Shown here in pieces: positions 5,980-34,067 of a stretch of 63,804 bases of DNA. The notes below the pieces were generated by a model. That model did no database searches. It saw only the letters and a program-made list of their open reading frames with translations, and had not been told where the DNA came from. Each line of letters starts with the position of its first letter. Positions within the stretch are counted from its first letter, which is position 1. The DNA is from an uncultured Thermotogae bacterium (GTDB taxonomy: Bacteria > Bipolaricaulota > Bipolaricaulia > UBA7950 > UBA9294): positions 1 through 63,804 of the forward strand of contig CAYUSW010000007.1 in the NCBI GenBank assembly GCA_964447445.1, given 5' to 3'. The translations under genes and the position numbers were made by a program.

Positions 5980-6010
5980 TGTAATCCAGCGCCGGCCGAA
6001 GGGAGCCATC

Positions 6011-6721
6011 ATGAGCGGCGCTCAGACGCTCTTGCAGAGCCTCGGTCCGTTCTTCACGAGAGGACTGCCGGAGACGGTCAAGATCACGGTGTTGCTCTTG
6101 CTGCTTGGGCTTGCGCTCGGCGTCTTGCTCGGGTTCACCCAGGTATACGGCCGGCGACCTTTTCGCTACTTGTGCGTAGGGTACGAGCAGATCTTCCGCG
6201 GCATTCCGCCGCTGGTGATGATTCTCATTCTTTACAGCGGACTTGCACGCTCTTTTCACGTCATGCTGCCGGCGACGACAGCCGCGGTCCTGGCGCTCGG
6301 TCTTCGCTCCGCGGCGTATCAGTCGCAGATCTTCCGCGGTGCGATTCAGGCCGTGCCGCCTGGACAGATGATGGCAGCGCGCTCCCTCGGGATGAGCAAG
6401 ATGCAGGCGATTCGATGCGTCATCCTTCCCCAGGCGTTTCGCTTGGCGCTCCCACCTTGGTCGAACGAGTACTCGGGCGTGATCAAGGACACGGCTTTCG
6501 CATGCTCCATCGGCGCGGCGGAGCTGACTCGCCAGGCTCAGCTTGCTATGACGCGTCTGGCCATGGTTCCGGACATCGGGACTCGTCTGATCCTTCCCGT
6601 CTTCCTCATCCTGGCCCTCTTCTACCTTGCGCTGACGTACGGAGGAAACGGACTCCTCGCGCTCTTGGAGCGGCGATTGCGCATCCCCGGATTCGAGATG
6701 AAAGGCAAGGTTGAGCGCTGA
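6011..6721 (+). CDS. Amino-acid ABC transporter permease
   Basis: Multi-TM protein with the FRGIPPLVMILILY and EAA-like (MAARSLGMSKMQAIRCVILPQA) motifs of His/Glu/Gln/Arg-type permeases. Confidence 0.85.
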   Translation: MSGAQTLLQSLGPFFTRGLPETVKITVLLLLLGLALGVLLGFTQVYGRRPFRYLCVGYEQIFRGIPPLVMILILYSGLARSFHVMLPATTAAVLALGLRSAAYQSQIFRGAIQAVPPGQMMAARSLGMSKMQAIRCVILPQAFRLALPPWSNEYSGVIKDTAFACSIGAAELTRQAQLAMTRLAMVPDIGTRLILPVFLILALFYLALTYGGNGLLALLERRLRIPGFEMKGKVER

Positions 6722-25945: not shown

Positions 25946-27406
25946 TTATCCTTTGATGACAACCATCGGCCGCAGGCGCGCCACAATCTTGTTGAGGCCT
26001 GCGTCCCGCGCCGCGGCCACGACGCGCTCCACGTCCTTGTACGCTCCTGGGGCTTCCTCGGCGATGCCGCGCGCACTGTGCGCGAGAACGCAGATGCCGT
26101 CCTTTCGGAGCCCTGAGATGACGTCGTCTCCCCAGAACCTCTTTGCGGCCTTCTTGCGCGACAGCGCGCGGCCCGCGCCGTGAATGCCGCTGCCGAAGGT
26201 CCTCTCCATTCCAAGCGCCGTTCCCCGCATCACGTACGACGCTGTGCCCATCGTTCCGCCGACCAGAATCGGGTGTCCCACGTGGCGGTAGGCCGACGGG
26301 ATCTCCGGGTGGTTGGGGCCGAACGCGCGCGTTGCGCCTTTGCGGTGAACGAGCAGCGACCGCCTCTTGCCCTCGACCTCGTGTTCCTCCAGTTTCGCGT
26401 TGTTGTGCCCAATGTCGTAGATGGTCCGGACCTCGGCAGCCTCGAGGCCGCAGGTCCGATGCAGGGAGCCGCGCACGAGGTGGGCGATCATCTGCCGGTT
26501 CGCGAAGGCGCAGTTCGCGCCGCTGGCGATCGCGGCAAGGTACTTGCGGCCCTCGGGGCTCTTGATCGGCGCGCAGACCATCTCCTGGTCCGGAATCGTG
26601 ATCCCGTACTTCGCACTGGCGGCGCCCAGCTCCTTCAGATAGTCCTGACCCACTTGATGACCCAACGCGCGGGACCCCGTGTGGATGGCGACGACGACCT
26701 GGCCCTCGCTCAGTCCGTACGCCTGTGCTGCCAGAGCATCGACGACGCGCTCGACGTACTGCAGTTCCACGTAGTGGTTTCCGGAACCGAGGGATCCCAC
26801 CTGGTTGAACTCGCGCTGCTTCGCCAGCGGACTCACCGCGCCGGGATCCGCTCCCTGCATCCGGCCTCCTTCCTCGGTGAACGTGAGGTCTTCCGGCAGC
26901 CCGTGTCCGAGTCGTACCACGTAGGCGGCTCCGTCTTCCAGCACATGATCGATCTCTGCTATCGACAGCCGCAGACTTCCCCCCGCCCCTAGGCCCGCGG
27001 GAACAGCACGAAACAGGGCCTCGCCGATGGACCTGAGGCGATTCGCGACGTCCTGGCGTCGGAGCGGCGTGCCGAGGAGGCGGACGCCGCAATTGATGTC
27101 GAACCCCACCCCCCCGACCACGGCAACACCCTCGTCGACGTCGAATGCCCCGACGCCGCCGATCGGGAAGCCGTAGCCGGGATGCACGTCCGGAAGTGCC
27201 AGCGCAGCGGACACGATCCCCGGCATCGAGGCAACGTGCTTCACCTGCCGGATCGCGCTCCACTGGGCGCCGTCGCCTTCTTCGTGCCGCAAGAGCTCGA
27301 TGGTCTCGCGATCCGCGTAGATCCTCCCCGGGACGCGCATCGCCTCGTGAGGAGGCAGCACCCACTCGACGTCTCCCACCTGCTCCAGGCGTTCGAATTC
27401 GCCCAT
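25946..27406 (-). CDS. rtcB: RNA-splicing ligase RtcB
   Basis: 486 aa with GFDINCGVR, GSGNHYVE, HTGSRALGH and HRKGATRAF, the RtcB metal- and GMP-binding blocks. Confidence 0.95.
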   Translation of the reverse strand: MGEFERLEQVGDVEWVLPPHEAMRVPGRIYADRETIELLRHEEGDGAQWSAIRQVKHVASMPGIVSAALALPDVHPGYGFPIGGVGAFDVDEGVAVVGGVGFDINCGVRLLGTPLRRQDVANRLRSIGEALFRAVPAGLGAGGSLRLSIAEIDHVLEDGAAYVVRLGHGLPEDLTFTEEGGRMQGADPGAVSPLAKQREFNQVGSLGSGNHYVELQYVERVVDALAAQAYGLSEGQVVVAIHTGSRALGHQVGQDYLKELGAASAKYGITIPDQEMVCAPIKSPEGRKYLAAIASGANCAFANRQMIAHLVRGSLHRTCGLEAAEVRTIYDIGHNNAKLEEHEVEGKRRSLLVHRKGATRAFGPNHPEIPSAYRHVGHPILVGGTMGTASYVMRGTALGMERTFGSGIHGAGRALSRKKAAKRFWGDDVISGLRKDGICVLAHSARGIAEEAPGAYKDVERVVAAARDAGLNKIVARLRPMVVIKG

Positions 27407-27415
27407 GCTCTCACC

Positions 27416-27838
27416 TCACGTGTCGGCGACGTACTCGGCGAACCACGTCCCATTCTCGGTCCGGATGCGGAGTCCGAGGAGACTGATCCCCTTGACCTCC
27501 GATCGCGCCTCGTGCCGAACGGCATCAAGAGGCTCGCCCCAGGCGGTCCCGCCTAGCGTGACCGCCGAGCCTTCCTCGGTCACTCGGACATCGAATCGCG
27601 AGAAGACAAGGCCGGTGAGGTCCTTCTCGGCTACCAACGCGGCGAGCCAGTCGACCAACAAGAGTTCGACGGAGCTGTCTTGGAGCGAAAAGCCCTTCTG
27701 GACGATCGGCCGAACACGATCCAGACTGACCATCGCAGCCACCAGCGCGCGGGCCGCCTCAACGAAGGCCTCGTCCAGCGTCTCTCCCCACGCGCGGACC
27801 GCGAGGTCGGCCCTGTGGTCGAGGTACGCGAAGCCCAC
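27416..27838 (-). CDS. Archease (RtcB activator)
   Basis: GTG at 27838, immediately after the thpR stop, gives (M)GFAYLDHRADLAVRAWGETLDEAF.... 140 aa, the typical archease size and opening motif. Confidence 0.8.
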   Translation of the reverse strand: MGFAYLDHRADLAVRAWGETLDEAFVEAARALVAAMVSLDRVRPIVQKGFSLQDSSVELLLVDWLAALVAEKDLTGLVFSRFDVRVTEEGSAVTLGGTAWGEPLDAVRHEARSEVKGISLLGLRIRTENGTWFAEYVADT

Positions 27839-27840
27839 GG

Positions 27841-28410
27841 CTACGCTCCCGTCTGCGCCGGGATTGGCGCCGAGAACAGAGGCGTGTACTGGGCTCCCCG
27901 CGGTGTCAACTCGCTCTGCATGAGCAGGATGCGGTCGGGTGAGCACTCCCGGGGCGGGAGTCCGCCAATCCCCACGACGACCTGCCGAAGCCGAGGGTCC
28001 GGAGCTCCCTTGAGCCTCGCGATCGTCGTATGCGCCACCGCGGGCTTCGGTTCCTCGGGAAACCCAAGCAGCGACAGATCTCGGTTGAGCGACCGGATCA
28101 GAGTCATGAAGCCCTGCGGGGTCTCGCCGCCTACCCAGAGCACGCGCGCCCGATCCAGCGAGGGGAAAGCCCCGATATCGCGTAGCGCGAGGGAGAACCT
28201 TCCACATTCCTCGGCTGCCCGCGCAGCGACACCTCTGAGATCCGCTGTTGCCAAGGGGTCGATCTCCCCGAGGAATCGCAGCGTGACGTGGTAGTTCTCG
28301 GGTTCGACCCACGACGCGGACATCCGCGTTTCTCGCCGAAGCCGATCCGCGGCCCGCGCGATCAGGGCCCGCAGGTCCGGGCCGAGCGGCAGGCAAAAGA
28401 AGGCTCGCAT
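27841..28410 (-). CDS. thpR: RNA 2',3'-cyclic phosphodiesterase (2H family, LigT/ThpR)
   Basis: ATG at 28410 after AAGGAGGGGG. Two HxT/S motifs, HVTLRFLG and AHTTIARL, about 90 residues apart. Confidence 0.85.
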   Translation of the reverse strand: MRAFFCLPLGPDLRALIARAADRLRRETRMSASWVEPENYHVTLRFLGEIDPLATADLRGVAARAAEECGRFSLALRDIGAFPSLDRARVLWVGGETPQGFMTLIRSLNRDLSLLGFPEEPKPAVAHTTIARLKGAPDPRLRQVVVGIGGLPPRECSPDRILLMQSELTPRGAQYTPLFSAPIPAQTGA

Positions 28411-28478: not shown

Positions 28479-31400
28479 ATGCGAAAGCCCTTGCGATGCG
28501 CCGCCCTCCAGTTTGCCCTCCTTGGGCTGTACGGAGTCGCTGCCGTCGCCGCGCAGTGGGTCGTCGCTCAGGATGGCACAGGGAGCTTCCGCTCGATTCA
28601 GGGGGGCATTTCCGCCGCAAGCTACGGCGATGTCGTCTACGTATCGCCCGGCATCTACGAAGAGCGGATCGCTCTCAAGGACGGGGTGCGCGTTGTCGGA
28701 TCCGGAGCCTTGGACACCGTCATTCGGTACGCCTATGGGTTCGAAGAGGTCGTGCGTGCGCATCAGATGAGCTCGGGCTCGCTGGAGGGGGTGACCGTGG
28801 AGCGCCTCGCCTCGGTGCTCCCCGGACCGGCGGTGCGCGTGGACTCGGCCTCCCTCGCGCTGGTCGATTGCATCGTTTCGGGAGGGCAGGACGCGGGCAT
28901 CGAAGTGACCGAAGTGACTTCCACGCTGTCGCTGCAAGGCACCCAAATCAAGGCGAACGCCGGACACGGCGTGCTCGTCCACCATGGCGCTCAGGCCTCT
29001 CTCGACAACTGCACGATCGAAGGGAACGGAGGCTCCGGCCTCCTCGTCGGGAGTGACGCTACCGCGCGGATCTCCGGCACGACGCTGGCCTCGAACGGTC
29101 GTTGTGGCCTGGCGGTGGAAGGCAACGCCCGTCTGGAGGTCAGCGACTCGTCGATCGGCTCTCATCCGCAGTGGGGTGTCTTGGCCCTCGGCGATGCCCA
29201 CATCTCCCTCGTCGATGTCGAGCTCATAGAGAACGGTGTCGGGGGCGTCCGAGTGGCAGGGACGACGGACGTCACCCTGACGCGGGTCTCCGTGTGGAGA
29301 GGCGGCGCGGGCATCGAAGCGTCCGGTGCCGTCGGCCTGACGGCCACGCGCCTCCGACTGGCGAGCGTAGCGGGCGACGGCGTCGCCCTCCTTGAGACTG
29401 CGTCGCTCGTCGCGGATCACGTCGAAGTGGTCGCCGCCGGCCGGCATGGAATCGTGCTGGACACGTCGGGTGAGGCGAGCCTATCTCTCTCGACCATCGT
29501 CGAATGCGGCGAGGACGGAATCCTGGTCCGCTCGGGACATCCAGACGTGCGGCAAACGATCCTCGCCTACAACCACGGCGCCGGAATCCGCGTCGACGCC
29601 TCGCAGAGCCCGCCGGCCGGAGCTTATCTGGCCTACAACGCCGTCTGGGAGAACGCCAGCGACTACGTCGGCGTCCTGCCTTCGGCGACCGACACGGCCG
29701 CGCCGCCGCAGTTCGTCGACCCGGAGCGGGGCGACCTCAGTCTGCTTCCAGGATCAGCATGCCTGGACGCGGGCCCCGCCTGGACGACGATTGGGTCCGG
29801 CGTGGACGCCGCATCCCAGTCGTACGCGTCGTTCGAACTCCTCCCGCAGATCACCGATGGCTGGCTCGGGGCGACGTGGCGGTCCAACATCCGCCTCGCG
29901 GCCTTTCCGGCGGGACTTGAGACCCTCACTGCAGAGTGCCGGTGGGCGAGCGAAGCGTTGCGCTTCGACCTCGGAGCATCCCTCCTCGGCCGGTGGGGGC
30001 GACGCGCCACGGCGCACCTCGAAGGGGCTCAGCGCTGGCCGAGCCAGGGCACAGAGAGCGGTGGGATCGCCCTCGCATACGGTGTAGACGGCGCGCTTGC
30101 CGGATCTCAGTCCTGGGCTTCTGCCTGGCTCGAGGCTGAGGTCGAGCGGGCGGGGTTTGTCGCGAGCGGGCGCGGTTCAGTGGCCTGGCCTGACCACGTC
30201 TGGACAGCCGACCTCACTGCGGGCCTCAGGGGGCCGCTTGACGTCGAGGTCTCCGCCGGTGCGACCGGGCTCTCGCTCCGCTCGCTGTTTGCTCTGGCGT
30301 GCGCAGAGGCCGATGTCGCCGGAGGAACGATGTCGCTAGATGGCAGGATCACGCTTCTGCCAACCCTCGAAGGAATGCTGGAGGCGGAGTGGGGACGCGA
30401 CACGCTGGCGTGGCAAGCTCGAGTTGCGTTCCAGCCAGCAAGCGACGCATGGGCCCTGTCAGCGTCCGTGCGCGACGCTGCGGTGCGCGTCGAGGGAAGA
30501 GCGCGTTTCGTCTCCGGCGCTGCCGCGGACGGCGACCTCTCCGTTGAATGGGGGGGTGCGCGGGCACGAGTTCGGGCGGGTCTTGCGTTGGACTCGGGCG
30601 GCGCTCGGGTGCGCGCCGGCCTCGAGGTCTCGCTCGACAGCCTGCTCCGCCGTCCCGCGAATGAACCTCCTGTGCCGGCCTTCCGGACGGCACCCCCGGA
30701 CCCCGAGGCCGGGAAGCCGGTGCGGTTCCTGGCTGACGAGTCCTCCGACGGCGACGGGGAGCTGCGCGAGATCTGGTGGGACTTCGGCGATGGCGCCGCC
30801 GCGGAAGGCCGCGAGGCGAGTCACGCGTACAGAGAGGCGGGAACCTACGAAGTCACTCTCACCGTGTCCGACGACGCAGGGGCCGTCGCGTCTCTGACGA
30901 CATCGGTCCGCATCTGGCCTGCTGATACCACCCCGGTGGCGGCCTTCTCGGCCTATCCTGTCTCAGCAAGCGGCATCCGGCTGCCGCGTCCGCTTCGCGA
31001 CGGCGATCTCCTGCGTCTCGACGCGGGCGACTCGTCCGATCCCGACGGTTTGGTCGCCGAGTACGCGTGGGACATCGGGGCCGACGGTTCGTTTGATGTG
31101 GTCTCGGCGGAGGCCGCCGCGACGGTCGGCCCTCTCCCGGCAGGGGCGTACCCGATGACGCTCCGCGTCCTCGACGACAGCGGCCGCTCAGACGCCGTCA
31201 TGCATGTGGTTGTGGTGGACAGGAGCGAGGCGCCGCAGAGTAGGTTCTCGTATACGCCGCCGACGCCGGCCGTGCGCGACCCCGTACGGTTCTCCGACCG
31301 ATCGACCGACACCGACGGCGCGATCACGTCGTGGGAGTGGAGCTTCGGGGATGGGGCCACCAGCCACGAGGAGAGCCCGGTTCACCGGTATGAGCGCGTC

Positions 31401-32795
31401 GGCCGCTACGACGTCGTCCTGCGCGTTACAGACGACGCCGGATTGAGTTCCTCCGTGACTCAACCTGTGGAGGTGTTAGCCGTCCCCGAAATCGCAGACG
31501 TCGGCAACGTGTGGGCCGTCCTCATCGGCATCTCGGATTACTCCGAGGTGAAGGACCTTCAGTATGCGGGGGCCGACGCAACCGCTATGGCGCGATGGCT
31601 GCTGGATTCCGCGGTTGAGCAGAGTCACATTCGGCTCCTCGTGGACCACGAGGGTCCTGAGAGCAGCTTGGGGGGGCTCGTTGCTCGCCGTGCCACGCTT
31701 GTCAATGTGCGCGAGGCGCTTGGCTGGGTGCGCCGCCTCGCCTTACCTGACGACCTCGTGCTCATCCATTTCTCGGGCCACGGCTTCCAGGGAGCGGACG
31801 ACGACGGCGACGAGAAGGACGGCGTGGATGAGTTCTTCGTGCTCTGGGACACCGTGAACGCAGCGAAAGAGGACACGGCGCTTCGCGATGACGAGTTCGG
31901 CGCGGCCGTCGATCGGATCGAATCGCAGCATGTCGTCATCTTCTTCGACGGCTGTTACTCGGGAGGTCTGTCGCGCAGCCTTCCGTCCTCGGCCCGGCCC
32001 GTCGTGGGGAAGCAAGATCTCTTCTCCGACTTCTCCGTCGAAGGCCGCCTCGTCTTCTCGGCCTCCTCGGAGTCCCAGGACGCCTTTGAGTCGGACGAGC
32101 TCCAGCACGGAATCTTCTCCTACTACGTGTTGGAGGGTCTGCGCGGGCGCGCTGACTCGACGGGAGATGCCCGAGTCACGGCCTGGGAGCTGTTCGAGTA
32201 CGTCGCGCAGAGGGTGCCCGAACGAGCACGGGTTGAGCGGAGCGCTCGGCAAGACCCGCAACTCCTGGGAGAGGGCGAAGTGCGCGTCCTTCTGGCTGCT
32301 GCCGCCGCCGCCCCGGTCGCGGACTTCAGCTACGAGCCCGGAGTGCCATTCGTAGGTGGAGCGATCCGGTTCGCCGACCAATCGAGCGGAGATCGGCCGC
32401 TTCGGTCCAGACGCTGGTTGTTCGGAGACGGAGCGGCCTCTGATGAGACCGATCCCACGTACGCCTACGAACGGCCCGGGCAGTACGCCGTCGAGCTTCG
32501 CGTGACAGACGTGTCAGGAGGACAGGCAGACGCCAAGCAGGTCCTGACGATCCGACCGGCGGGCGCTGTCGTCGTTGCGGATGCAGCGTCCGGGCGACTC
32601 GTCGTCTCACTGGGGAGCGAGAACGGAGTCAGGGTCGGCGATCGGTTCGAGATCCTCGGAGCAGAGACGAGCGAGGAGCCGCAGGCCGAGCTCGAGGTGG
32701 TCGAGCTCATTGAGAGAGGCATGTGTGCCTGCCTCCTCCTCCGCGGGGAACCTCCCGAGGTGGGAGTCAGCGTCCGGCTGCTAGCGCCCGGCTGA
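28479..32795 (+). CDS. Giant secreted multidomain protein: parallel beta-helix repeats, unassigned region, 3 PKD, caspase (peptidase C14), PKD, small C-terminal domain
   Basis: 1438 aa.
- Signal peptide: MRKPLRCAALQFALLGLYGVAAVAAQ.
- Pectin-lyase-like opening DGTGSFRSIQGGISAASYGDVVYVSPGIYEE, then PbH1-type repeats.
- PKD motifs: WWDFGDGA, AWDIGADG, WSFGDGA, WLFGDGA.
- Caspase dyad: HFSGHG (His codon 31779-31781) and FFDGCYSGG (Cys codon 31953-31955). Confidence 0.85.
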   Translation: MRKPLRCAALQFALLGLYGVAAVAAQWVVAQDGTGSFRSIQGGISAASYGDVVYVSPGIYEERIALKDGVRVVGSGALDTVIRYAYGFEEVVRAHQMSSGSLEGVTVERLASVLPGPAVRVDSASLALVDCIVSGGQDAGIEVTEVTSTLSLQGTQIKANAGHGVLVHHGAQASLDNCTIEGNGGSGLLVGSDATARISGTTLASNGRCGLAVEGNARLEVSDSSIGSHPQWGVLALGDAHISLVDVELIENGVGGVRVAGTTDVTLTRVSVWRGGAGIEASGAVGLTATRLRLASVAGDGVALLETASLVADHVEVVAAGRHGIVLDTSGEASLSLSTIVECGEDGILVRSGHPDVRQTILAYNHGAGIRVDASQSPPAGAYLAYNAVWENASDYVGVLPSATDTAAPPQFVDPERGDLSLLPGSACLDAGPAWTTIGSGVDAASQSYASFELLPQITDGWLGATWRSNIRLAAFPAGLETLTAECRWASEALRFDLGASLLGRWGRRATAHLEGAQRWPSQGTESGGIALAYGVDGALAGSQSWASAWLEAEVERAGFVASGRGSVAWPDHVWTADLTAGLRGPLDVEVSAGATGLSLRSLFALACAEADVAGGTMSLDGRITLLPTLEGMLEAEWGRDTLAWQARVAFQPASDAWALSASVRDAAVRVEGRARFVSGAAADGDLSVEWGGARARVRAGLALDSGGARVRAGLEVSLDSLLRRPANEPPVPAFRTAPPDPEAGKPVRFLADESSDGDGELREIWWDFGDGAAAEGREASHAYREAGTYEVTLTVSDDAGAVASLTTSVRIWPADTTPVAAFSAYPVSASGIRLPRPLRDGDLLRLDAGDSSDPDGLVAEYAWDIGADGSFDVVSAEAAATVGPLPAGAYPMTLRVLDDSGRSDAVMHVVVVDRSEAPQSRFSYTPPTPAVRDPVRFSDRSTDTDGAITSWEWSFGDGATSHEESPVHRYERVGRYDVVLRVTDDAGLSSSVTQPVEVLAVPEIADVGNVWAVLIGISDYSEVKDLQYAGADATAMARWLLDSAVEQSHIRLLVDHEGPESSLGGLVARRATLVNVREALGWVRRLALPDDLVLIHFSGHGFQGADDDGDEKDGVDEFFVLWDTVNAAKEDTALRDDEFGAAVDRIESQHVVIFFDGCYSGGLSRSLPSSARPVVGKQDLFSDFSVEGRLVFSASSESQDAFESDELQHGIFSYYVLEGLRGRADSTGDARVTAWELFEYVAQRVPERARVERSARQDPQLLGEGEVRVLLAAAAAAPVADFSYEPGVPFVGGAIRFADQSSGDRPLRSRRWLFGDGAASDETDPTYAYERPGQYAVELRVTDVSGGQADAKQVLTIRPAGAVVVADAASGRLVVSLGSENGVRVGDRFEILGAETSEEPQAELEVVELIERGMCACLLLRGEPPEVGVSVRLLAPG

Positions 32796-33077: not shown

Positions 33078-34067
33078 TCACTCCTCGATTTCGAGCGTCA
33101 GGAGGAAGTCGCGTTCGGGACGGTGCACTTTGACAACCACCCGATCGCCGGACTTCTTCGTTGCGAGGACACTCATCAGCTCCTGGCACGTGTTAACGGC
33201 CACGGCGTTGACGTGCGTGATGACGTCTCCTGCCTCGAGGCCGCGCAGCTCGGCGATCGTTCCCTCGACGACCCGCGTGATTCGAACGCCCACTCCGCCC
33301 GTCTCTCCGCACAGGATGCCGAGCGAGACCGAGGTTCGCGCGTAGTTGACCGAGACGACGTCGACCGGGGAGCCCGTCAGCGAGCCGAAGGGAACGAGGA
33401 TCGTCGGCTGTTCGATCACGCTGCCGGCGCCTGTGCCCCGAGAAGCGTCGGCCGGCAGAGTGTCCGGCAAGTACACGTCGACGCGAATCGTCCCCCGCTG
33501 CGAAGCATCGGTAGCTTGAGAGTGACTAGGTGTCTCGAAGCGAAACGCGAGCGCCTCGTCGGCACTCACCTGCCACCCTGCGATTCGCACCGTCTGGCGA
33601 GGCGACAGAATCCACTTCCGATCCTCGGCCGATCCGGAGGCCCTGGATCCGCCGTTGGTGTTCAGTCCGTCGATGACGAGGACAACTCCAAGCGGCGCAT
33701 CCGTCTTGTTCGTCAGAACGACGCGGTACGCGGCACCCAGTACAGGCTGGGCCGTGTATTGACGGGTGAACACGAAGTCCAGTTTCCCGAGCACTGCGCA
33801 CTCCACCGAGGGCGACGCCGCTCCTTCGCATGTGTCAGAAGCCCGAGCTGCGCTCGCGGCGTCGACAGCCGTCAGTTTCTCGATGTCCATCGACAGGAAG
33901 CGAGCGTCGAGCGGTTCGTACCAGCCCATCCCGAAGAGCCCGAGGGAGTGGAAGACTTCTATGCTCACATCGAGATACCGCGTGCTCATCCCCGACGCGC
34001 ACGCGCCAGTGGACGACAGGATCAAGAGCCCTACAGCGAGGGCTGGGATCAGCTTACGTCGAGGCAT
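33078..34067 (-). CDS. Lipoprotein with C-terminal PDZ domain
   Basis: ATG at 34067 after GGAGAAGGGGG. Signal and lipobox-like ALAVGLLILSSTGAC. The C-terminal GVRITRVVEGTIAELRGLEAGDVITHVNAVAV...GDRVVVKVHR is PDZ-like. The N-terminal roughly 250 aa are unassigned. Confidence 0.7.
   Translation of the reverse strand: MPRRKLIPALAVGLLILSSTGACASGMSTRYLDVSIEVFHSLGLFGMGWYEPLDARFLSMDIEKLTAVDAASAARASDTCEGAASPSVECAVLGKLDFVFTRQYTAQPVLGAAYRVVLTNKTDAPLGVVLVIDGLNTNGGSRASGSAEDRKWILSPRQTVRIAGWQVSADEALAFRFETPSHSQATDASQRGTIRVDVYLPDTLPADASRGTGAGSVIEQPTILVPFGSLTGSPVDVVSVNYARTSVSLGILCGETGGVGVRITRVVEGTIAELRGLEAGDVITHVNAVAVNTCQELMSVLATKKSGDRVVVKVHRPERDFLLTLEIEE

Follow-up and report, generated by a model that had tools for sequence, protein, structure and literature searches.

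The metacaspases and orthocaspases of peptidase family C14B, among which are Yca1 from yeast (4f6o), MCA2 from Trypanosoma brucei (4afv), MC4 and MC9 from Arabidopsis, GSU0716 from Geobacter (3bij) and MaOC1 from Microcystis, are, as far as they have been studied, cytoplasmic and soluble proteins. Cysteine proteases with a caspase fold are also found outside the cytoplasm. One example is the gingipains (family C25), caspase-fold proteases of Arg/Lys specificity that have Ig-like domains and are tethered to the outer membrane. Another is the periplasmic CHAT domain of DdvA, an anti-sigma factor of Myxococcus (PMC11506125). In this work we analysed a 63,804-nucleotide stretch of DNA (the window; contig CAYUSW010000007.1 of assembly GCA_964447445.1) from an uncultured sediment bacterium of the phylum Bipolaricaulota, in which an open reading frame (ORF) on the forward strand (28479-32795; 1438 codons, stop-free on translation) encodes a large exported protein with an intact and strongly conserved C14 domain of caspase fold.

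A first-pass annotation of this DNA had described a protein with a signal peptide, a β-helix, four PKD domains and an intact C14 dyad, a description which is upheld by Pfam and by an alignment of 81 full-length homologues. It had also set this protein against a background of cytoplasmic C14-type proteins, which holds for most of those studied but overlooks the extracytoplasmic caspase-fold proteases just mentioned. The gingipains and the CHAT domain of DdvA precede the present case, so that an exported caspase is not, in itself, new. Both differ from our protein in family and in anchoring, which relies on the type IX secretion system (T9SS) and A-lipopolysaccharide (A-LPS) in the gingipains and on an inner-membrane helix in DdvA; unlike DdvA, moreover, the gene described here has no sigma/anti-sigma pair nearby. 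What is new is the architecture, in which an internal and possibly odd-stranded predicted barrel joins a β-helix to a cassette of PKD and metacaspase domains, together with a dedicated PDZ partner.

The assignment of the catalytic domain to family C14 is based on several lines of evidence. The Pfam profile Peptidase_C14 (PF00656) matches residues 1012-1261 with an expectation value (E) of 5e-13 and a score of 49.7 bits (cut-off 21.4), spanning positions 3-222 of its 233, and yields 54.6 bits for the same gene in a six-frame search of the genome. Both motifs of the C14 dyad, (S)GHG and (D/Q)xCxxG, are present. When PDB sequences are searched with phmmer, Yca1 is matched with an E of 4e-10, and the stretches HFSGHG and FDGCYSG line up with HYSGHG and FDSCHSG of the yeast enzyme (which we take to hold its catalytic His220 and Cys276), the Asp of FDSC being paired with Asp1157. 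The dyad located in this way, His1101 and Cys1159, falls exactly on the codons given in the first-pass annotation. None of the 81 homologues departs from His1101, Cys1159 or Asp1157 (two positions before the Cys), and Asp1033-Ala1034 and most positions of the acidic stretch DD..DE.DGVDEF are likewise invariant. Within the protein, conservation is highest in the C14 core, with a mean identity to the query of 0.70, compared with 0.65 for the whole C14 domain, 0.55 for PKD domains 1-3, 0.40 for the β-helix, about 0.36 for the fourth PKD domain plus the C-terminal domain and 0.27 for the barrel.

The predicted structure is in agreement with this assignment. An AlphaFold2 model of residues 993-1438, built on an alignment of 73 sequences, has a predicted local distance difference test score (pLDDT) of 87 and shows a caspase fold, with Foldseek matches (probability 1.00; E from 5e-15 to about 1e-10) to the MALT1 paracaspase, to the metacaspases Yca1, TbMCA2, AtMC4/9 and that of Candida glabrata, and to GSU0716. 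Additionally to the C14 match, our protein shares with the metacaspases and orthocaspases the SGHG and D-x-C-x-SG motifs, the acidic cluster after the His, the predicted caspase-hemoglobinase fold and a flexible loop with an Arg after the Cys, at an identity of about 18-22% in structural alignments; it is unlike them in having a signal peptide, a β-helix, a predicted barrel and PKD repeats. The top Foldseek match (E about 5e-15) is the caspase-Ig3 unit of MALT1 (3uo8, 4i1p), in which, as here, the caspase domain is directly followed by an Ig-like domain, and which also carries an Asp at -2 from the Cys. MALT1 itself is a signalling protease of the eukaryotic cytoplasm and has death and Ig domains, and the likeness is one of fold only, the overall root-mean-square deviation (rmsd) being as high as about 17 Å because the orientation of the domains differs.

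In the structures of TbMCA2, Yca1 and MALT1, an Asp at -2 from the Cys and an upstream Asp line the S1 pocket that receives Arg or Lys, and in metacaspases the acidic cluster binds Ca2+. An Asp at -2 and an upstream Asp, the acidic pair of the C14B pocket, are both found in our protein, and we assume from these structures that Asp1157 and Asp1033 occupy the S1 pocket. Based on this pair and on the acidic cluster, the domain is probably an endopeptidase cutting after Arg or Lys in a Ca2+-dependent manner. The loop that follows the Cys is the only stretch of low confidence in the model of residues 993-1438. In it lies Arg1173, kept by 95% of the family, which by analogy with metacaspases and orthocaspases is a candidate autoprocessing site. 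From its sequence, the catalytic domain belongs to family C14, has metacaspase/orthocaspase character and is very likely catalytically competent.

At the opposite end of the protein, a hydrophobic leader precedes a cleavage junction (A-x-A followed by Q(W/L)VVS.DG) that is kept among the homologues, and residues 2-21 are helical in a second AlphaFold2 model, which covers residues 1-744; as read from these features, export of the protein is highly likely. The β-helix which follows matches Beta_helix (PF13229) above the gathering threshold (E 1.6e-23, 83.5 bits) and NosD with an E of 2.6e-9, has a pLDDT of about 95-98 and is matched by Foldseek to PL6 alginate lyase, phage tailspikes, the epimerases AlgG and AlgE4, and GH87 glucanase. 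No conserved catalytic signature was recognised in it.

The segment between the β-helix and the first PKD domain, which had been left unassigned in the first-pass annotation, is now predicted to be a membrane β-barrel, based on AlphaFold2, Foldseek and strand amphipathicity. In the model of residues 1-744 (pLDDT 92.6; predicted template-modelling score, pTM, 0.86), the β-helix extends to about residue 420 and is then followed by 19 antiparallel strands of 9-15 residues, with a pLDDT mostly of 90-97 in the barrel segment. Apart from β-helices, the Foldseek matches in the PDB are VDAC1/2, Tom40, Mdm10 and LptD, and VDAC is superposed on the barrel with a target-normalised template-modelling (TM) score of 0.62-0.67 and an rmsd of about 5 Å across roughly 290 columns. 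Among the 81 homologues, all 19 strands have a hydrophobic face (mean Kyte-Doolittle value +1.8; 0-18% charged residues, median 2%) alternating with a polar one (mean -1.2; 18-52% charged), and since a barrel so wide cannot hold a hydrophobic core, the hydrophobic face should point outward, to the lipid. The aromatic girdle is weak, and the loops, of 2-7 residues and near-constant length on both faces, are VDAC-like and atypical for bacterial porins. The same genome has an Omp85/BamA homologue (contig C86, 10723-11526, locus L015; a 762-aa open frame, 58.7 bits), which supports a diderm envelope for the organism, as judged from sequence. Bipolaricaulis has been described as a simple diderm lacking lipopolysaccharide (LPS) (PMC6092417). 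Taking the model and the strand pattern together, residues 450-718 probably form a membrane barrel, which would make the protein most likely anchored in the outer membrane, and not a free, stalked exoenzyme.

The barrel can be compared with two groups of known systems. With the type Va (pertactin-like) and type Ve (intimin/invasin) autotransporters the protein has in common a Sec leader and a (here predicted) outer-membrane barrel, combined with a β-helix (Va) or with Ig-like domains after the barrel (Ve); the barrels of those proteins have 12 strands and are terminal, whereas the one predicted here has 19 strands and is internal, with large domains at both ends. Since, besides this, neither PF03797 nor IAT_beta is matched, we do not regard the protein as a type Va or Ve autotransporter. 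With the mitochondrial porin superfamily (VDAC, Tom40, Mdm10) it has in common, by prediction, a barrel of 19 strands whose loops are very short at either face (TM score up to 0.67), but not sequence similarity. Our protein also differs in having a bacterial host and a barrel that lies mid-chain, and the resemblance may be purely geometric. No PDB sequence is matched by the barrel at E <= 10, nor is any Pfam family by 26 barrel segments at the same limit; consistently, the protein does not belong by sequence to the eukaryotic porin family (VDAC/Tom40, PF01459), the likeness being at the level of predicted fold. Homology of the barrel to VDAC, autotransporters or porins is not claimed, given that profile, Pfam and PDB searches returned no sequence relative.

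After the barrel come the PKD domains and the protease. PKD_4 (PF18911) matches four stretches of the protein (E 4.4e-64, 213 bits) and PKD (PF00801) scores 139 bits, both above threshold; with these, Beta_helix, NosD, PKD_4 and Peptidase_C14 all exceed their curated cut-offs, in line with the profile check proposed in the first-pass annotation. The PKD domains of the collagenase ColH align to the fourth PKD stretch. The small domain that ends the protein has a family motif, SLG..NG..(V)GDRF ... LEVVEL. FlgT_C (PF16538) scores 15.8 bits here (E 0.02; cut-off 27) and matches 14 of 26 family members weakly (best E 0.0026), and because these matches are below threshold the domain is named only FlgT_C-like; a profile of its approximately 80 residues returned only chance-level matches from the PDB.

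The unit formed by several PKD domains, the C14 domain, an optional PKD domain and the FlgT_C-like domain is not restricted to this protein. In metagenome proteins bearing signal peptides, a cassette 40-44% identical to the query is found behind two periplasmic solute-binding domains, SBP_bac_8 and Phosphonate-bd (P0089), and behind a WD40 propeller (P0090), and an 821-aa protein from another family of the phylum (L058, 1907-4372, reverse strand) has a related cassette after a domain that, by eye, is PEGA-like. Reuse of this kind suggests, at the level of sequence, a family of envelope proteins in which a variable binding domain is combined with a constant protease. The genome has a second C14 gene (contig C64, locus L001, 1414-2541, reverse strand), whose product, of 375 aa, begins with a lipoprotein-type leader (..VFVSGC) and has a single PKD domain together with a C14 domain in which the FFSGHG/DACYSGG dyad is intact. 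The product of the gene adjoining this second caspase gene has papain-like (C1) motifs.

Based on a search of 5.8 billion clustered proteins, which served as a survey of the domain order, the architecture is shared by about 88 sequence clusters with the same Pfam set, of about 1420-1460 aa and 38-69% identity. All of the named clusters come from metagenome-assembled genomes (MAGs) of Candidatus Bipolaricaulota/Bipolaricaulis, except for one labelled Thermotogota, and the 31 loci found in GTDB genomes agree with this (some of the records bear the label 'uncultured Thermotogae' or 'Atribacteria'). Among 151 sampled genomes of the phylum, the gene is found at full length, always as one copy, in one GTDB family only (genera g1, g4, g6, g9, g10, g13 and g16); eight further genera of this family lack it, and given this restriction the gene is clade-specific and not phylum-wide. 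Three orthologues look damaged, one by an in-frame TAG and two by being split into adjacent ORFs (G128:C31, G024:C12 and G112:C23); they may represent pseudogenes or errors of assembly, and they hint at ongoing gene loss in some lineages. An archaeal MAG (Methanomassiliicoccales; L047, match at 6001-6618) contains a 985-aa ORF with one caspase peptide pattern and 25% identity over the C14 domain. The gene has been assembled independently from DNA in at least seven sediment metagenome runs. Databases label its product only as 'PKD domain-containing protein', and our literature searches found no paper describing it.

The second component is the convergent PDZ gene downstream, which the first-pass annotation had named as the only obvious partner and had taken for a lipoprotein. 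Its standing as a candidate partner is supported. It adjoins the large gene in 29 of 31 related loci, and, of the genomes tested, all 12 with the large gene have it, as against 2 of 20 that lack the large gene; both exceptions are assemblies of 85% completeness, from genera in which the pair is otherwise found. Its family comprises 88 clusters, all at least 41% identical and with no distant relatives, a count that matches that of the large protein. Joint gain and loss and fixed adjacency are good evidence for a functional pair, and a functional link between the two proteins is, on these genomic grounds, likely. The lipoprotein assignment, on the other hand, does not stand: orthologues do not keep the lipobox-like Cys seen in this copy, and the protein is hence considered Sec-exported and not reliably a lipoprotein, with a plain Sec leader and no recognisable anchor. 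A profile of the partner family matches the PDZ domains of DegQ and DegP with an E of 1e-16. Its N-terminal domain of about 230 residues is highly conserved, with invariant residues in large number (YR..L.N.T, DGL, KW.L, GWQ) as well as conserved cysteines, and had no match in Pfam or among PDB sequences; a possible resemblance to DUF4384 found no support. Binding of the PDZ domain to the large protein's own C-terminus was considered and not adopted, the tails being variable and ending in Gly, Ser, Pro, Asp, Ala, Thr or Arg.

Building on the domain content, the conservation of the dyad, the caspase fold, the phyletic pattern and the partner linkage, we infer the activity, specificity, activation and topology of the protein, as well as the role of its partner, and combine them with the predicted barrel in the following proposal. 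The large protein would be exported by the Sec system, and BamA would insert its central 19-strand barrel into the LPS-less outer membrane. There the barrel would anchor two arms, an N-terminal β-helix of glycan-binding type and a C-terminal cassette (three PKD domains, C14, PKD and FlgT_C-like), in which the C14 domain would be a working cysteine endopeptidase using the His1101/Cys1159 dyad, probably matured by a cut at Arg1173 in the flexible loop. The protease arm would act in the periplasm on specific envelope substrates, in conjunction with the co-inherited PDZ protein, whose PDZ domain may bind the C-terminal tails of substrates or products. As a whole, a Sec-exported and BamA-inserted barrel that anchors both a β-helix and a working metacaspase cassette acting with a PDZ protein has, in our estimation, about an even chance of being right.

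Several observations weigh against this proposal. The length, variability and charge of the loops, compared between the two faces of the barrel, show no asymmetry, and with loops equally short and invariant on both sides the orientation of the barrel is not readable from them. A 26-sequence profile of the barrel, run against 1.84 billion representative proteins, retrieved its own family only, and always at the same position; as the barrel lacks sequence relatives outside the family, the evidence for its membrane role is the prediction and the amphipathic pattern. The C-terminal tails of the large protein are atypical PDZ ligands. PKD repeats placed behind a barrel are reminiscent of the passengers that inverse autotransporters display at the surface, and they fit a surface location, as does the related cassette found after a PEGA-like domain, a type of domain known from S-layer proteins. 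None of the RNA runs searched holds the gene, and no protein expression data were found.

The topology of the two arms is the point at which the proposal has its closest competitor. A barrel with an odd number of strands (19) has its two ends on opposite faces of the membrane, and it is possible that the β-helix lies outside and the protease arm in the periplasm, or that the β-helix lies in the periplasm and the protease arm outside, as in inverse autotransporters; it is also possible that both arms are periplasmic, if the linker threads the lumen like the N-terminus of VDAC or if the strand count is even. If the protease arm were outside, which would be a modified form of the idea in the first-pass annotation, the barrel would anchor the protein while the exported PKD-caspase arm degrades environmental proteins or processes surface ones, in the manner of the gingipains. 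The order of a barrel and tandem Ig-like (PKD) domains mimics that of intimin and invasin, the 19 predicted strands put the two barrel ends on opposite faces, β-helices of the NosD and AlgG types are periplasmic, and PKD domains are common among secreted enzymes such as ColH; additionally, Bipolaricaulis depends on amino acids from outside the cell, and few exoproteases are annotated in it (PMC6092417).

Nevertheless, the cassette is the slowest-evolving part of the protein, which is unusual for exposed scavenging enzymes; in a paralogue it follows periplasmic solute-binding domains; the PDZ protein inherited with it has a Sec leader only; neither IAT_beta nor any other autotransporter profile is matched (by the whole protein at E <= 0.1, or by 26 barrel segments at E <= 10); and no precedent is known for the passage of 720 residues through such a barrel. 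We therefore consider a surface-displayed protease unlikely, although it is the most serious of the alternatives. Placement of the protease arm in the periplasm, whether the β-helix lies outside or inside, is somewhat favoured by the fusion of the cassette to a solute-binding protein (SBP) domain, by the C14 protein of the same genome with a lipoprotein-type leader, by the Sec-only PDZ partner and by the conservation gradient, in which the β-helix core and the barrel evolve fastest and PKD domains 1-3 and C14 slowest. The first-pass annotation had pictured an extracellular protease displayed on a simple stalk of β-helix and PKD domains; the predicted barrel, lying between the β-helix and the PKD-caspase arm, leaves no such plain stalk, and the SBP fusion, the PDZ partner and the conservation gradient tilt the location toward the periplasm. 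The more ambitious version of our proposal, in which a closed 19-strand barrel of VDAC/Tom40-like geometry lets a single chain couple glycan or ligand binding at the surface to a periplasmic protease with a dedicated PDZ protein, as a trans-outer-membrane signalling or processing device, appears doubtful.

It could also be that the central segment does not form a barrel in the membrane, AlphaFold having over-read amphipathic hairpins which belong, for example, to a large soluble sheet or sandwich, and that the protease is soluble, in the periplasm or secreted. The absence of relatives among known outer-membrane protein families, the weak aromatic girdle and loops which, on either side, are shorter than is usual in bacterial outer-membrane proteins would be explained in this way, and we have counted in its favour that, to our knowledge, an odd number of strands is not known in bacteria. 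This is hard to reconcile with the confidence of the model across the whole segment (pLDDT and pTM as given above), with VDAC/Tom40 matches that extend over the whole domain, with the near-uncharged face present on all 19 strands, which could not be buried inside so wide a barrel, and with the presence of BamA in the genome, and we regard a soluble protease as improbable. Least probable of all, by our judgement, is a suicide or defence device triggered by envelope breach or phage, in which a surface β-helix would sense the invader and the caspase arm would destroy envelope proteins, similarly to cytoplasmic caspase/CHAT conflict systems or to DdvA: its support (a PADLOC match to the generic 'caspase' profile PDLC02987, E 2.7e-17; a match of 74.8 bits to the NCBIfam model NF047832, caspase, EACC1-associated, caspase_w_EACC1; variable sensor-like N-domains on a constant protease cassette, which recalls conflict systems; and a β-helix resembling phage tailspike folds) is outweighed by the generic nature of the first match, by the 140-bit cut-off that the second fails to reach, by a housekeeping neighbourhood (dnaE, yvcK/cofD, rtcB-archease, dcd/pyr) in which neither an NTPase nor a sigma/anti-sigma pair nor any further defence gene is present, and by single-copy, vertical inheritance with fixed synteny in 11 other loci of at least four genera, unlike mobile defence islands, and we have rejected it.

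The features of the two proteins are collected in Table 1. In the window, the large gene has as neighbours dnaE, a CofD/YvcK-like gene, rtcB and an archease-domain gene on one side, and the PDZ gene, dcd, a ThyX-like gene, pyrE and pyrF on the other. The order rtcB-archease, divergent large gene, convergent PDZ gene and dcd is kept in 11 of 11 other loci, from at least four genera. The archease-domain gene and rtcB (25946-28396, reverse strand) are divergent from the large gene, and matches are found in 11 of 11 searchable loci for archease and in 10 for rtcB; their position is probably a matter of conserved gene order and nothing further.

Table 1. Features of the large protein and of its PDZ neighbour, with positions in the window.
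Feature	Residues	Position	Strand	Basis
Sec-type signal peptide	1-25	28479..28553	+	MRKPLR, hydrophobic core, cleavage between AVAA and Q; sequence heuristic
Right-handed parallel β-helix (CASH/NosD-like)	26-422	28554..29744	+	Pfam, AlphaFold2
Linker with short helical turns	423-449	29745..29825	+	DSSP of AlphaFold2 model
Predicted 19-strand transmembrane β-barrel	450-718	29826..30632	+	AlphaFold2, Foldseek, strand amphipathicity
Three tandem PKD domains	~728-1003	30660..31487	+	Pfam PKD_4; K319L-like_PKD at 846-911
Metacaspase-like Peptidase_C14 domain	~1008-1274	31500..32300	+	Pfam PF00656, phmmer, AlphaFold2/Foldseek
Catalytic His (SGHG)	1101	31779..31781	+	Codon CAC; alignment
Catalytic Cys (FDGCYSGG; Asp1157 at -2)	1159	31953..31955	+	Codon TGT; alignment
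Low-confidence, probably flexible loop after the Cys	1168-1187	31980..32039	+	pLDDT <50 (model residues 176-195)
Fourth PKD domain	~1277-1359	32307..32555	+	PKD_4 stretch; AlphaFold2 β-sandwich
C-terminal small β domain, FlgT_C-like	1360-1438	32556..32792	+	AlphaFold2, all-β, pLDDT ~90-96
Sec-exported partner, ~230-aa N-domain and C-terminal DegP/DegQ-type PDZ		33078..34067	-	Pfam PDZ_2, E 9.5e-11

The homologues of caspases studied in bacteria are mostly cytoplasmic, and here one is exported, as part of an apparent outer-membrane protein from a barely known and uncultured phylum whose envelope is unusual in lacking LPS. The protease cassette is small enough to be expressed and assayed, and the central claims are directly testable. 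If the barrel is real, it would widen the range of outer-membrane protein architectures (a barrel inside the chain, flanked by large domains on either side and possibly odd-stranded) and would provide a bacterial example of VDAC/Tom40-like geometry; a closed 19-strand barrel would be the first odd-stranded β-barrel reported from a bacterium. With such a barrel, the protease and the PDZ protein would constitute a defined two-gene system for envelope proteolysis in deep-branching diderms.

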